This document shows positions 841 to 21,541 of a DNA stretch of 32,000 bases, piece by piece. Position 1 is the stretch's first letter; each line of letters begins with the position of its first letter. The DNA comes from an uncultured archaeon (GTDB lineage: Archaea; Asgardarchaeota; Thorarchaeia; Thorarchaeales; CAZPUN01): positions 1-32,000 of the forward strand of contig CAZPUN010000048.1 in assembly GCA_964589775.1 (NCBI GenBank). Direction: 5' to 3'. Both the position numbers and the translations under genes were made by a program. The notes under the pieces were generated by a model. That model searched no databases. It saw nothing but the letters and a program-made list of their open reading frames with translations, and was not told where the DNA came from.

Positions 841-1078
841 TGAGAAAGCATCGCTTAAAAGCGACGTCGAATCGCAATAAGAATCCATAAGTGCATGCAT
901 ACAAAAATCAACTAATTTGAGAATTTATAGGGTGCGACTTGAATGTAATGTGTCGCATCCAAAAACATCTTCAAAAGCTGGAGCGATAACAAGATCCCTC
1001 ATCGGGGGCACGGCGAGTATATGCGTGAATTGGCTATCATGGGAAATCTATAACACAAAATCATCGTATTTCAATACG
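841..1078 (-). repeat. Dispersed hairpin-rich intergenic element, copy A
   Basis: Reverse complement shares colinear blocks with 20446-20665: CTCAAATTAGTTGATT (16/16; 906-921), AAGCGATG(C/G)TTTCTCA (15/16; 841-856), TGA(A/G)GATGTTTT, CATTCAAGT, CG(C/A)ATATACT and a CGTAT..ATACG hairpin. Confidence 0.8.
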
Positions 1079-1115: not shown

Positions 1116-2447
1116 TTACTTCTTTGAACGCGTAATGTTCAAGTCGCGAATTAGAACAGGCGGTGTCAGTACGGAAGTATCGACCTCCCACCATTTAATT
1201 TGCTCGGAGTTTTTACCGATCTCGTCAATCTGTTGTAGAACGTGTAGCATGTTTTCAGAGATACGAATCTCCTTTATTGCACCAACGATTTCGCCATCTT
1301 TAATCAAGAAAATGCCATCACGTGGGATTGTAGAGAAGTCTCCAGTTTGGTGATTCTGGAATCGGGTATACCAGTTACTGGTAACATAGATGCCTTTCTT
1401 AACGCTCTGGATCATTTCATCAAGTGTCATAGAACCGGGTGATACAATTGAGTTCCAGCTCCTTGGAATTCCATCACCTGCATTACCGGTACTTTCTGTA
1501 TCAAATTTCTTTGCAGTTGAAGTATTGTGTAATAAGCCTTTTAGAATCCCATTTTCGATAATTACCGTTTCTTGAGTTGGATGCCCTTCGGAATCATATT
1601 TTCGACTTTCATAACCATTAGGAAGGACTCCAGAGTCAGTTATGGTTAATTTTTCACTTGCAACCTTTTCGCCGATTTTATCCATAAAGAAGCTCAGTCC
1701 AGAATCATAGAAGAAACCATTAGCGCTCATTATTACGGTGTTTATAAAGTTTCCAAACACAGCTGGAGATAAGATTACATCATATTTTCCAGGTTCGCCT
1801 TGTTCCTGTTTTTCGCAGTCTTTCGCAATTTTACCGGCTTTTGCACCTGCAGCTTCTGGCTCAAATTTGTTCAGAACGCGAGATACTGAAACTCCCATGC
1901 CTGATGCATAACCTTCCATGAATCCACGGACTGTAAGTTCTAACCATGTACCTTCTTGCTCAGCATCGAGACCATTTGAACCATATGAATAATCTTTAGA
2001 ATGAGTTGCATACACAATACCCGCAACACGCTTTGCACCATTTTCTAATGCTTTATTAATTGATGCATGTGCAAGATCAACCAGCCCTTCACCCAAATTG
2101 ACAACCTTTTTGTCGAATGTTTCAGGAATTTCTTTGTACTCAAATGGGCCCTGCGCAACACCATAAAAGTCTTCATTTGGCTTGAGCTTTTCAACAACGT
2201 GTGATAGTTCCTTTACAGCTTTTTCTAAAATATCATCACGCGGATCTTTCAGATCGAACATTGCGATTTTCTTGTCCTTTTCGGCATATACTTTTATGAG
2301 AATCTCATCCCATGAATTTGTGATTGTAATTACATTATTGGCAAAGCGTACCTGATTTCGCTTCATCAATGTAGCATGAACAATAGTATGAACACCTTGC
2401 TTTTCTGCTTCTTTCACAATATATCTAGGTATTTCCGCAATGTCCAT
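1116..2447 (-). CDS. tldE: TldE/PmbA family protein (non-catalytic partner of TldD)
   Basis: 443 aa; QVRFANN N-terminus, GKYDVILSP, GEKVASEKLTITD, YDSEGHPT, STGNA, TGDFS; no HExxxH motif; start overlaps the tldD stop (TAATG). Confidence 0.88.
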   Translation of the reverse strand: MDIAEIPRYIVKEAEKQGVHTIVHATLMKRNQVRFANNVITITNSWDEILIKVYAEKDKKIAMFDLKDPRDDILEKAVKELSHVVEKLKPNEDFYGVAQGPFEYKEIPETFDKKVVNLGEGLVDLAHASINKALENGAKRVAGIVYATHSKDYSYGSNGLDAEQEGTWLELTVRGFMEGYASGMGVSVSRVLNKFEPEAAGAKAGKIAKDCEKQEQGEPGKYDVILSPAVFGNFINTVIMSANGFFYDSGLSFFMDKIGEKVASEKLTITDSGVLPNGYESRKYDSEGHPTQETVIIENGILKGLLHNTSTAKKFDTESTGNAGDGIPRSWNSIVSPGSMTLDEMIQSVKKGIYVTSNWYTRFQNHQTGDFSTIPRDGIFLIKDGEIVGAIKEIRISENMLHVLQQIDEIGKNSEQIKWWEVDTSVLTPPVLIRDLNITRSKK

Positions 2448-3889
2448 TATGAACTACCTCCTATACGAATACCTCTTACCAAAGTACGCTCGGGACCGCC
2501 CGTCCATACTGGAGCACCTTGGCTGGGGTCTGATTTACCACATGTGGCTGCTACAAAATCTAATTTCTTACTACTTCCAACAACTGAAGAATAGAATCCA
2601 GGTGTTGTAATTTCAAGCACGGGACGATTAACTGGATGCTTGATTTCACCATTCTCAATCAGATATGCCTTACGACCAATGTACTTCTGGTTGAATCGAC
2701 GGTCATCAATATTCCATTCACCAAATGTTTCCATCAGAATCCCAAATTTGACTTCCTCTATGATTTCATCAGGATCCCAATCGCCCGGTGCAATAAACGT
2801 GTTTGCCATTCGTACAATTGGTTCTCGATTAAAGCCAATACCGCGAGCCGCACCATTTGAGTGAGTGCCCATTGTTGCTGCAGTTTCACGATTATGTAGA
2901 AATTCGGTAATTATGCCATTTTTAATTAAATAACGAGCCCTAGCTCGTACGCCTTCATCATCATAAAGATAGTATCCATACGAGCCATCAAGCGTAGGGT
3001 CGTCTATCACACTCACGTTTTCACTACCGATCTTTATACCAATATCCTCGGGAGAGAGATAAGATTCACCAGCTTGAGCGCCTTCACGACCCAAGATCCT
3101 GTCGGCTTCACCCGGATGACCTGCAGATTCATGTGCAATAATTCCTGCAACCTCAGGGCCGATAACTAAATCCATTTCGCCTTCGGGGCACGGCTTAGAT
3201 TTTAGAATCTGTTCTTCAAGTGCAGACAATGAATCTGAAAGTCTATCAGGTATATTAAGCGCTTCTAATTTTTCCCAGCCGCCAGTCTCACCGTATTGTT
3301 CGAATGTTTGCTCTGCGCGATTATTACCTATTGCAGTAATAACACCAATCAATGAAAATCGCGGCAGATTTGAATATATCTTGGTACCATCAGAATTTAC
3401 AAAGTACTTCTCATTAATCCAATCAGTAAACATGAATATACGTGCTGGAAATAGAACATCACTCTTACGTGATAGTATCATTTCATCAAGATCTAAGAGT
3501 AATTTTAATCGTTCATCGTTTGAGATATCCAGAAATGATTTTTTCATCTTAACTTCATAAGAATCGTCATAACTTTTCTCTTCCGAGAAGCGAATGGGTT
3601 CTTTACGTGCTTTCCCGGATTGCTTCGCAAACTTTACTGCTTTTTCAACTGCATCTTTGATGTGATCTTTTGAGATAGTGTTCACAGAAGAAAAAGCTAG
3701 ACCCCCAGAATGAATTACGCGAATACCGATACCATATTCAAAAACAATACCAAGAGTTTCAGGAGTTGAATTTTTTAAAATTACACTATGACCATTTGTC
3801 TGCTCAAGACGGGCTTCAGCATAAGTAGCGCCGAGTTTTTGAGCATACTCGACAGCAAACTCAGCTAAGTCAAGATTTATTATAAGCAC
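2447..3889 (-). CDS. tldD: TldD family metalloprotease
   Basis: HESAGHPGEAD (HExxxH zinc motif), YDDEGVRA, PIVRMANT and C-terminal CGK..QGAPVWTGGP. The ORF-track start (4000) overlaps the divergent gene; the real start is near AGGAGGTG at 3887-3894 (GTG 3889 or ATA 3880). Confidence 0.92.
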   Translation of the reverse strand: MLIINLDLAEFAVEYAQKLGATYAEARLEQTNGHSVILKNSTPETLGIVFEYGIGIRVIHSGGLAFSSVNTISKDHIKDAVEKAVKFAKQSGKARKEPIRFSEEKSYDDSYEVKMKKSFLDISNDERLKLLLDLDEMILSRKSDVLFPARIFMFTDWINEKYFVNSDGTKIYSNLPRFSLIGVITAIGNNRAEQTFEQYGETGGWEKLEALNIPDRLSDSLSALEEQILKSKPCPEGEMDLVIGPEVAGIIAHESAGHPGEADRILGREGAQAGESYLSPEDIGIKIGSENVSVIDDPTLDGSYGYYLYDDEGVRARARYLIKNGIITEFLHNRETAATMGTHSNGAARGIGFNREPIVRMANTFIAPGDWDPDEIIEEVKFGILMETFGEWNIDDRRFNQKYIGRKAYLIENGEIKHPVNRPVLEITTPGFYSSVVGSSKKLDFVAATCGKSDPSQGAPVWTGGPERTLVRGIRIGGSS

Positions 3890-3961
3890 CTCCTTAATAG
3901 CATCATAAAAATATGAAATTGAGACAAATATATATACTATCGGACTTGAGCAAAAAAAGAG

Positions 3962-5050
3962 ATGAGTCCAATGATACTGGACAGAATTAAAAATCTTCAA
4001 CGATATATGGACATAAATGATATAGATTGGACATTTTTAGTCCCTTCACCGAACTTTTTCTATCTGACGGGTGTTTCAATCGATACTCACGAACGATTAA
4101 CTGCACTATTAATACCAAAAGATGATATTCCGACAATAATAGTACCAAGTTTTGAAAGAGAACGATTAGAACAAGATACAGAAATCGCCAATATTGTCAG
4201 CTGGCAAGATGGCGAAAATCCTTATGATTATGTTAAGAAGATTACAGGTAGTGAAATTAAAACAATTGCTATAGAAGATAATGTACCTTTTGGAGTGCTA
4301 TATAATTTGGATACAAAGATCAAGATATCACAAAAGGTGCCAATTACGCCCTATATAAGCGAGCTACGTCTTAAGAAAAGCACAGACGAAATTAATTTCA
4401 TGAAGCAAGCGGGACGAATAATTGAAAAGGCACTTGAAGACGGATATCAATACGTTAAAGAAAATATGAGCGAATTAGACTTGGCCAAATATCTAGAAGA
4501 CCGAATTGTGGAATATGGTGGAACCCCAACGTTTACAATTATTCAATTTGGTCCAAACTCTGCAATTCCACATGCCGAATCATCCCGTAAGAAATTGAAA
4601 AAGGGCGAAATCATCCTAATAGATTTTGGTTGTAGTTATAAAGGATACAATACAGATCAAACAAGAATGGCAGTCTTAGGAAAAGCAACCGAGAAACATA
4701 AGGAAATTTACAGTATAGTACAAGAAGCTCAAGAAGCAGCAATAAAGTATGATAAAGAAGGAGTTTCAGCAGAATCAGTTGATAAAGTAGCCAGAGATGT
4801 CATTGAATCAAAGGGGTATGGAAAGTACTTTATTCACAGATTGGGACATGGCATCGGAATTGAAGTCCATGAGCCACCTTATATTGTGCAAGGAAATAAA
4901 CAGATCCTAGAAGAAGGAATGACACATAGTATTGAGCCTGGAATATATATATTAAACGAGTTTGGCGTTCGTATTGAAGACCTTGTAGAAGTTAAAAAGA
5001 ATGGGGTAGAAATTATAACATTCTCCAAGAAGGAGTTAAGGGAGATCTAA
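3962..5050 (+). CDS. pepQ: Xaa-Pro peptidase / prolidase, family M24B
   Basis: Creatinase-like N-domain; SAIPH, IDFG, YNTDQTR, HRLGHGIGIEVHE, SIEPGIY and GVRIED metal-ligand motifs. Confidence 0.9.
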   Translation: MSPMILDRIKNLQRYMDINDIDWTFLVPSPNFFYLTGVSIDTHERLTALLIPKDDIPTIIVPSFERERLEQDTEIANIVSWQDGENPYDYVKKITGSEIKTIAIEDNVPFGVLYNLDTKIKISQKVPITPYISELRLKKSTDEINFMKQAGRIIEKALEDGYQYVKENMSELDLAKYLEDRIVEYGGTPTFTIIQFGPNSAIPHAESSRKKLKKGEIILIDFGCSYKGYNTDQTRMAVLGKATEKHKEIYSIVQEAQEAAIKYDKEGVSAESVDKVARDVIESKGYGKYFIHRLGHGIGIEVHEPPYIVQGNKQILEEGMTHSIEPGIYILNEFGVRIEDLVEVKKNGVEIITFSKKELREI

Positions 5051-19997: not shown

Positions 19998-20017
19998 AAT
20001 ATGCCATGCGTCATATA
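19998..20017. promoter_or_regulatory. Second, degenerate operator copy AATATGCCA-N2-CGTCATATA
   Basis: 15 of 18 arm positions match the palindrome at 19904; ends about 10 nt upstream of the regulator ATG at 20027. Confidence 0.6.
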
Positions 20018-20026
20018 TCTATAAAC

Positions 20027-20416
20027 ATGAAAATAAATGCATTTGAAGTCGCGTCGAGATATGTTTATCCATCTATCCGAAGACGGATTGTAGAGATTTT
20101 GTCCAATGAACACAAATTAAATCAGCGTGAGATAGCTCGATTGATCCATATCACTCAATCTGCGGTATCGCGATATATTAGACAAAATAGAGGAACATAC
20201 ATTGAGATCGAGCAGTTCAAGGACATTGATGAAGAAATTCGCAAGATGGTTCAATGGATTATTAAAGACGAGCCAAACGAATATGATTTGCATAAGAAGA
20301 TCATTGAGATTTCATTAGAGATGCTGGGGAAGGGCTATGTGTGTGTATTTCACCATGAGATCGATGAATCTGTAGATCCATCTAGTTGTAAGACATGTAT
20401 TGATCTTTTTGGTTGA
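20027..20416 (+). CDS. Archaeal HTH transcriptional regulator (COG2522-like) with C-terminal Cys/His metal site
   Basis: YPSIRRRIVEIL, QREIARLIHITQSAVSRY helix-turn-helix, CVFH...CKTC. Likely start ATG 20027; ORF track start is 20006. Confidence 0.85.
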   Translation: MKINAFEVASRYVYPSIRRRIVEILSNEHKLNQREIARLIHITQSAVSRYIRQNRGTYIEIEQFKDIDEEIRKMVQWIIKDEPNEYDLHKKIIEISLEMLGKGYVCVFHHEIDESVDPSSCKTCIDLFG

Positions 20417-20445
20417 AATTCGCCCTCGTGAGAGCAAGATATCTG

Positions 20446-20665
20446 CGTATAAAATACGTTGTAATAGATATTTAGCGAATATACTTCGAATCTCGGCGAG
20501 ATGCTTGGATATCACTCAAATTTATTCTGAGGATGTTTTGGAATGTGATGCATTCAAGTTTCGAGCCATTATGAATCCTCAAATTAGTTGATTGATGTTA
20601 TATGTTTGCTCTTTTTTGAATATTTAGGCTATTTACTGCCGCTTTCTAAAGCGATGGTTTCTCAC
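20446..20665 (+). repeat. Dispersed hairpin-rich intergenic element, copy B
   Basis: Colinear similarity to the reverse complement of 841-1078; hairpins CGTAT-AAA-ATACG, ATCTC-GGC-GAGAT, GAATG-N5-CATTC and CGCTTT-CT-AAAGCG followed by TTTCTCAC. Confidence 0.8.
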
Positions 20666-20758
20666 AGTTTATTTGTAAGAATACGTAATAACAAACTTTT
20701 ATTAGAATAAAAAATGAATAGATAGTCGTAAAAATGGGAGAACAGGTAGTGATTTCTA

Positions 20759-21541
20759 ATGGTTTTTGATGAAGATATAATTGGTCCCAAAGACAGCATA
20801 GAATTAGAATTAAGTGATAGAAATACTCGCGAATCAAATATAAAAATGACAATACTCATTCCGATAATTGTAGTTATATTAACGTTCATATCATTTGCAT
20901 TCATTTCTGCGATTATATTATTAATTATAAATCCTAACTTTCTCTATACAGGAATTATCTTACCATGGCAGATGCAGCTGCTTAGTGCATTAGAACTATT
21001 TTTCTTAATTGTACCAGTAATTATTTTTCGTAAAGATTGGAAAAGAAAATTAGGATTCCATGCAGAAAATATAGAAAAAATAATTTCAGAAAGTCTAATG
21101 GGGATTTTATTTGGATTTATTGTTTTTGGCGTAAATATATTAGTTGGATTTATTCAGGAAATTATCACGCCGAATACATCTGAACAGATTGACTACAGCT
21201 TTATGGTTTCAAAAGATCCAATTTCTTTAATCATTTGGGTTATAGTTATGGTGTTCTTTGTTGGGTTTAGCGAAGAAACATTATTCAGAGGATATTTACA
21301 GAACCAATTCAAGAGGGGATTCACAAATAGATATGGTCCCCACGGAAATATCCTTGCAATTGTTTTAGCGGCATTTATTTTCGCATTAGTTCATTTAAAT
21401 ATCGAAGGTTTCTTGGCATTATTCGCAATGGGTATCGCACTTGGAATAATTTTTGAATATAGAAAAAACATATATACAGTCGCAGTAGCACATGGAGTTC
21501 AAAATGCCATTGTAATTCTAATTATTTCTATGACGCTATGA
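20759..21541 (+). CDS. CPBP (Rce1/Abi) family intramembrane glutamic protease
   Basis: EETLFRG, FALVH and AHGVQN motifs within a multi-TM protein. Confidence 0.9.
   Translation: MVFDEDIIGPKDSIELELSDRNTRESNIKMTILIPIIVVILTFISFAFISAIILLIINPNFLYTGIILPWQMQLLSALELFFLIVPVIIFRKDWKRKLGFHAENIEKIISESLMGILFGFIVFGVNILVGFIQEIITPNTSEQIDYSFMVSKDPISLIIWVIVMVFFVGFSEETLFRGYLQNQFKRGFTNRYGPHGNILAIVLAAFIFALVHLNIEGFLALFAMGIALGIIFEYRKNIYTVAVAHGVQNAIVILIISMTL

Follow-up and report, generated by a model that had tools for sequence, protein, structure and literature searches.

What is the diverged, hairpin-rich element that lies between genes at two places on the same archaeal contig? The window analysed here is a stretch of 32,000 nt from an Asgard-type genome, and two of its intergenic regions, here called copy A and copy B, resemble each other. 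A sequence-only reading offered two answers. Either this was an undescribed family of structured non-coding RNAs or leaders, or it was a decayed non-autonomous mobile element. The second answer was the right one. With a probability of about 0.93, both regions are non-autonomous elements of the IS608 type within the IS200/IS605 family (PATEs), derived from a tnpA-tnpB element by internal deletion, which retained the omega-RNA region and are now most likely relics. The family is a previously undescribed sequence family belonging to a known class of selfish DNA.

The resemblance between the two regions has been corroborated. Copies A and B are homologous and colinear in a MAFFT alignment, and the two blocks picked out in the sequence-only reading (22/24 and 15/16 matching positions) are both there. 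The proposed similarity searches were significant as well: with copy A as the single query, copy B is recovered by nhmmer (E = 3.5e-8) and by blastn (E = 1.5e-5). Over the family alignment the two are 59% identical to one another, and their identity to the family consensus is 78% (copy A) and 70% (copy B). However, the element does not occur just twice. Iterated nhmmer over the whole genome (2.16 Mb in 64 contigs, 35% G+C, a bin that is 96.75% complete) converged on a family model of 258 positions, with 51 matches corresponding to about 46 loci, 32 of which are near full length (~260 nt).

All copies of this mini-element are intergenic and without an ORF, and both ends are present in 26 of them. 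Their length is about 260 nt or, in a short subfamily, about 210 nt. The short form lacks a stem that is a relic of tnpB (see below) and has a different short middle piece instead. Its five copies in this genome (C27:30228-30436, C23:117128-117341, C39:51994-52211, C50:898-1109, and C53:621-825) are the most alike, at 81-87% identity. Pairwise identity among all copies has a median of 60% and a maximum of 87%, the median identity to the consensus is 75%, and many copies are truncated or carry hairpin-breaking changes. Column conservation is uneven, with 43 columns at least 90% conserved versus about 16 expected. Extra right-end fragments are found at C21:44443-44481 and C64:26146-26219. They lie 10-35 nt past the right end of a copy that is either complete or has an internal deletion, so that right ends occur in tandem.

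Could the element be a leader? The two window copies are suggestive, each with a downstream ORF start 49-81 nt away and in the same relative orientation. That shared orientation was correctly described for the window, but it does not hold for the family. Twelve loci lie between convergent genes, 10 between divergent genes, 10 between tandem genes in the sense direction, eight between tandem genes in the antisense direction and six at contig edges. Orientation varies so freely across loci that a 5' leader, or a regulatory RNA at a fixed position, is excluded for the family. The common arrangement of copies A and B is a coincidence.

One clue to the identity of the family is where the similarity begins and ends. 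The left boundary is sharp at TTAC in 21 of 32 copies, with TTAT in another four; the genome background is 0.45%. On the right, similarity stops at ...GGGG-AGTATG-TCAG. The consensus left end consists of TTAC, the 18 nt AAACACTCTGCGAG-AAAG and then an imperfect hairpin. The consensus right end consists of GAAC, a hairpin ending in GGGG and the 10 nt AGTATG-TCAG. Compare this with IS608 (ISHp608), an IS200/IS605 family element of Helicobacter pylori. IS608 is cleaved at TTAC and TCAA under the guidance of AAAG and GAAT, each of which is 5' of a hairpin foot; its TTAC is part of the flank, outside the element, only the top strand is used, and the hairpin-to-end distances are quoted as 19 and 10 nt (PMC3201880, PMC5934647). 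The IS608 left-end oligonucleotide contains TTAC, CAAACTAACGCCTT-AAAG and the hairpin, and the right-end oligonucleotide contains GAAT, a hairpin ending in GGGG and AGTATG-TCAA (PMC5934647 supplement).

The family and IS608 therefore have the same TTAC target and left cleavage site, the same AAAG guide and the same 18-nt register between TTAC and the left hairpin, when IS608 is counted from the published oligonucleotide. Both have imperfect subterminal palindromes, no inverted repeats and no target duplication. The match is not perfect. The right-end guide is GAAC in the family and GAAT in IS608, the 10-nt tail after the right hairpin is AGTATGTCAG rather than AGTATGTCAA, and the hairpin sequences differ (CCTCGC...GCGGGG versus CCCCTAGC...GCTATGGGG). 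Also unlike IS608, the window's copies are gene-less and the hosts are archaea.

The subterminal hairpins of the family are direct, both on a single strand, and their distances from the ends are unequal (18 nt versus 10 nt). They have a common foot, CxTCGC/GCGGxG, whose conserved T.G wobble is a mark of the top strand, since in the complement it would be an A.C mismatch. The element reads on the strand opposite to the one first claimed for each copy (minus for A, plus for B), so that copy A is on the + strand and copy B on the - strand. Boundary alignment found no terminal inverted repeats at the family termini. A target duplication of at least 3 nt was not seen either. At all boundary offsets, 3-mers are shared in at most 3 of 26 copies and 6-mers or longer in none.

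These observations bear on whether the family might be a classical MITE, with terminal inverted repeats and moved by a DDE transposase. The termini are weakly alike when one is reverse-complemented (about 10/17 positions by eye). Nevertheless, this idea is almost certainly wrong. It was rejected because no such target duplication is seen, because the hairpins are direct rather than inverted and spaced asymmetrically as in IS608, and because full-length relatives have a Y1 tnpA and not a DDE enzyme. At the sequence level the family has what is expected of an IS200/IS605 member: a specific target in the left flank, guided hairpins, and no terminal inverted repeats or target-site duplication. The Y1 TnpA expected of full-length members is found in relatives, but not in the window's genome.

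Where are those relatives? A blastn search over 40 relatives of the window's genome found no copy outside it, and R1, a covariance model of the right end, had no match in another 86 genomes from the order and 150 genomes sampled across the phylum. The nearest genomes have only the order in common with the window's genome, and the family is absent there. Exact IUPAC patterns are a poor probe because the copies are so diverged; the best specific ones match only 3-10 of the genome's own copies. However, one degenerate right-end pattern matched two records. The first is a metagenome contig (L090) with only a right-end half, at the very start of the contig (118 bits). No locus of the window's genome is its orthologue, and it supplied no empty site. 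The second is a contig of a 1.2-Mb MAG titled 'Thermoplasmatota archaeon TVZ.SD19.224' (G210).

G210 has 26 R1 matches, six Y1_Tnp and six TnpB genes, and in five places the R1 match is directly 3' of tnpB on the same strand. Its contig C122 contains a complete element, in the order left end, tnpA, tnpB and a right end that finishes with GGGAGTATGTCAG. This tnpA encodes 129 aa (Y1_Tnp, 117 bits) and tnpB encodes 407 aa with HTH_OrfB_IS605, OrfB_IS605, and TNB domains (Pfam). In a PDB comparison the G210 TnpA matches Y1 transposases of Sulfolobus best (2f4f, 2ec2; E about 1e-38), followed by ISHp608 TnpA (4.7e-21). The left terminus of the C122 element departs from the family pattern, its hairpin being separated from TTAC by 25 nt. 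In G210, left ends that are linked to tnpA run from TTAC through 18 nt ending in AAAG, a hairpin and a TATA-like stretch to ATG.

How do the mini-elements relate to these longer ones? In five G210 copies, model positions 1-171, which represent the last 171 nt of the mini-element, run on without a break from the 3' end of tnpB through the right end, whereas nhmmer places positions 174-258 upstream of tnpA. When G210 TnpB is compared with the window's genome by tblastn, only residues ~357-407 align, and only at mini-element loci. In copy A, residues 369-397 match window positions 955-1041. This layout, together with the tnpB relic, makes the mini-element a deletion derivative. The deletion would have fused the left end, as far as approximately the start of tnpA, with the last ~171 nt, made up of the final tnpB codons and the right end.

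Such elements are already known. PATEs have been defined, and attributed to core deletion of IS605-type elements (PMC3119063), and they 'often encode omega-RNAs' (PMC10055086). The present mini-elements are too short for a transposase and keep both IS605-type ends. Like the PATEs of Haloquadratum walsbyi (PMC3119063) and Geobacillus stearothermophilus (PMC10055086), they have near-terminal palindromes, no inverted repeats or target duplication, and an origin by IS605-type core deletion. They differ in being another sequence family in other hosts, in the absence of an autonomous partner from the host genome and in the strong divergence of the copies. If they moved as IS608 does, a Y1 TnpA supplied in trans would bind both subterminal imperfect hairpins on the top strand, and would cleave on the 3' side of both the flanking TTAC and the terminal TCAG. 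A single-stranded circle would be released and then inserted 3' of another TTAC, with no target duplication.

With this plan in hand, the parts of copy A can be assigned. The mini-element spans 831-1087 on the + strand (257 nt; 193 bits with the nhmmer family model), which is wider than the 841-1078 originally given. Boundary alignment places its TTAC target and left cleavage tetranucleotide at 827-830. The left end (831-907) was mapped by alignment column and compared with the published IS608 left end and the tnpA-linked left ends of G210. It contains the guide-like AAAG that closes the 18-nt spacer (845-848), the left imperfect hairpin IP_L (849-866; CATCGCTT-AA-AAGCGACG) and an A/T-rich stretch that precedes the tnpA start in full-length elements. 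The middle (908-977) was delimited by tblastn, nhmmer, and counted stems. It holds the relic of the last tnpB codons, which encoded D-L-N ... N-I-L-K at the zinc-ribbon end. Positions 916-922 pair with 969-975 in a long-range stem that encloses an inner stem, GCGA/TCGC. This middle is presumed to be the 5' part of the omega-RNA scaffold. The right-end half (978-1087), defined by the R1 match (87 bits over 978-1090), the supported helices and column mapping, has four helices followed by the right terminus. Column mapping resolves the terminus into a guide-like AAAT where the consensus has GAAC (1058-1061), the right hairpin IP_R (1062-1081) and the tail AGTCAG, which has lost three bases of the consensus AGTATG-TCAG (1082-1087).

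Copy B has the same parts on the - strand. It spans 20674-20413 (262 nt; nhmmer 153.5 bits) rather than 20446-20665, and boundary alignment and column mapping put its TTAC at 20675-20678. Column mapping assigns the left end to 20674-20592, with AAAC replacing the AAAG guide (20660-20657) and IP_L at 20656-20637. The tnpB relic and middle stem follow at 20591-20522. The right-end half (20521-20413) is also matched by R1 (59 bits at 20411-20520), and includes IP_R (20439-20420) and the tail ATT-TCAA (20419-20413). These assignments affect the claim that hairpins occupy equivalent positions in the two copies. Not all of the hairpins named are homologous. CGTAT..ATACG of copy A is the right-end hairpin, but its look-alike in copy B lies elsewhere and the true counterpart is the one at 20439-20420. 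In the family as a whole, five helices are conserved.

These five helices make up the structured right-end half, and helix 5 is the TnpA hairpin. In the window's genome taken alone, the proposed helices are paired in 79.0% of cells versus 76.6% in shuffles, and about 40-46% with the partner slid. A value just above shuffles is as expected from the decay of a well-paired ancestor. The signal is clearer in 54 right-end halves from the window's genome, G210 and L090, with 84.6% paired versus 76.3% in shuffles and 35-47% with the partner slid, in an alignment fitted to the model and thus favouring structure. In the same alignment two-sided changes occur in 29 of 31 pairs and in 173 cells, versus 70 cells in shuffles, counts that refer to sequences and not to events. 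The pairing and the two-sided changes together indicate that the five helices were maintained during diversification of the family. RNAalifold on the 32-copy alignment with flanks gave the right-end hairpin only, and a usable consensus structure required trimming and dropping deletion variants. The consensus fold is more stable on the top strand (-34.5 versus -22.9 kcal/mol on the other), and G.T outnumbers A.C among the copies of the window's genome (232 versus 167, reversed in one helix). Together these give a modest strand signal, partly biased by the way the structure was derived.

Do compensatory changes in several helices, and two window copies set similarly beside genes, mean that the family is an independent one that serves the host through structured small RNAs or 5' leaders, and not transposon DNA? 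That is extremely unlikely. Orientation and position relative to genes vary freely, with 12 loci between convergent genes, the termini resemble those of IS608, and the body shares homology with the 3' end of tnpB together with the right end. Nor does Rfam recognize the element, with no match at gathering score in the window, and no credible one over the copies even at E values up to 1-10.

The transposon reading offers another role for the structure. The reRNA of TnpB comes from the 3' end of tnpB together with the right end, and about 16 nt of flanking sequence serve as its guide (PMC8612924). In ISDra2, the TnpB reRNA scaffold is encoded at the position taken here by helices 1-4 and the middle stem (PMC8612924). 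Judging from position, homology and covariation, the structured part probably encoded the transposon's own omega/reRNA, a known class. The retained 3' portion would encode the scaffold of the TnpB guide RNA, a transcript that ran past the right end would gain its guide from the neighbouring flank, and TTAC would serve as the target-adjacent motif. The parallel with ISDra2 extends to the layout (tnpB 3' end and right end, then guide-supplying flank) and to the protein, since G210 TnpB aligns over its whole length with ISDra2 TnpB (8bf8, E = 2e-32). However, the family RNA has no detectable sequence or Rfam-model similarity to the ISDra2 reRNA, and the predicted target-adjacent motif is TTAC instead of TTGAT. 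Unlike their ISDra2 counterparts, the family omega-RNA and its target cleavage are predictions from sequence.

Is the family still active? In one lineage it appears to be, judging by gene content and identity. It is present in 7 of 41 relatives of G210. G210 and its relatives G211, G212, and G213, whose genomes measure 1.0-1.2 Mb, have 24-33 matches each, intact tnpA and tnpB genes, and minis that are nearly identical. Within G210 the closest pairs of minis are 98-100% identical over their right-end halves, and tnpB-linked right ends have 91-97% pairwise identity. The G210 minis have no tnpB relic, which is the layout seen in the short subfamily of the window's genome.

The situation in the window's genome is different. 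Profile searches with Y1_Tnp, OrfB_IS605, and TNB found nothing over cut-off, and tblastn found no TnpA or TnpB body. The earlier statement that no transposase is present was correct, and extends to the whole genome assembly. Because tnpA and tnpB are absent from the assembly and the copies are strongly diverged, the copies in this genome are most likely relics. Most simply, they would have been left behind by an old invasion, or when the autonomous element was lost. They would be immobile remnants of past activity, or of transfer from a lineage that is still active. No empty site or presence/absence polymorphism was seen, and mobility in the window's lineage is inferred by analogy with IS608.

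What if the autonomous element was simply missed? In a bin of 64 contigs that is 96.75% complete, assembly could have missed a copy of tnpA or tnpB; bins of this kind often lack repeated insertion sequences. In this scenario an unassembled or unbinned tnpA/tnpB element of the same organism would still mobilise the copies and use their RNAs. The uneven column conservation is compatible with functional constraint of this kind. Nevertheless, the scenario is unlikely. In addition to the negative searches, the closest copies are 87% identical and the median is 60%, in contrast to 98-100% among G210 minis, where the genes are present, and many copies are truncated or have broken hairpins. When contig ends were checked for a common insertion sequence beside copies, none was found. 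Another possibility is that the host, with tnpA and tnpB gone, has co-opted some of the ~46 omega-RNA-bearing copies. Beside genes, they would carry promoters or work as structured regulatory RNAs, or else they would guide a protein that derives from TnpB and has escaped recognition. Such co-option is very unlikely.

The transposon reading has practical consequences. The loci are transposon DNA of a known class, and should be annotated as mobile-element remnants instead of RNA genes. This IS608-like family with TTAC as its target has intact tnpA and tnpB in a Thermoplasmatota-labelled lineage, and in an Asgard-type genome it is represented only by diverged copies without genes. Such a distribution suggests either transfer or that the autonomous element was lost. 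A guide-RNA scaffold and a TTAC motif are predicted for G210 TnpB, which makes it an ordinary candidate RNA-guided nuclease for study.

Other repeats are present at contig ends of the window's genome. Perfect 36-38-nt repeats with a 75-nt period occur at the ends of C48 (46171-46358, beyond the 32-kb window) and C54 (58-317), and look like a CRISPR-type array split by assembly. An unrelated short repeat is common to the contig ends C1:834-1069, C28:14377-14611, C32:378-438, and C7:1-52 (85-98% identity over 50-236 nt).

The neighbours of the two window copies can also be described. Adjoining copy A are two neighbouring genes for TldD/PmbA-family metalloproteases of 443 and 517 aa (window 1116-4000, - strand). 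On one side of copy B is an ArsR/SmtB-like ORF (20006-20416), whose TGA stop (20414-20416) overlaps the terminal TCAA of the element (20413-20416, - strand). The element thus provides the present end of this gene, and the C-terminus of the product may have been altered when the element inserted. After copy B comes a gene encoding a CPBP-family intramembrane protease (20759-21541).
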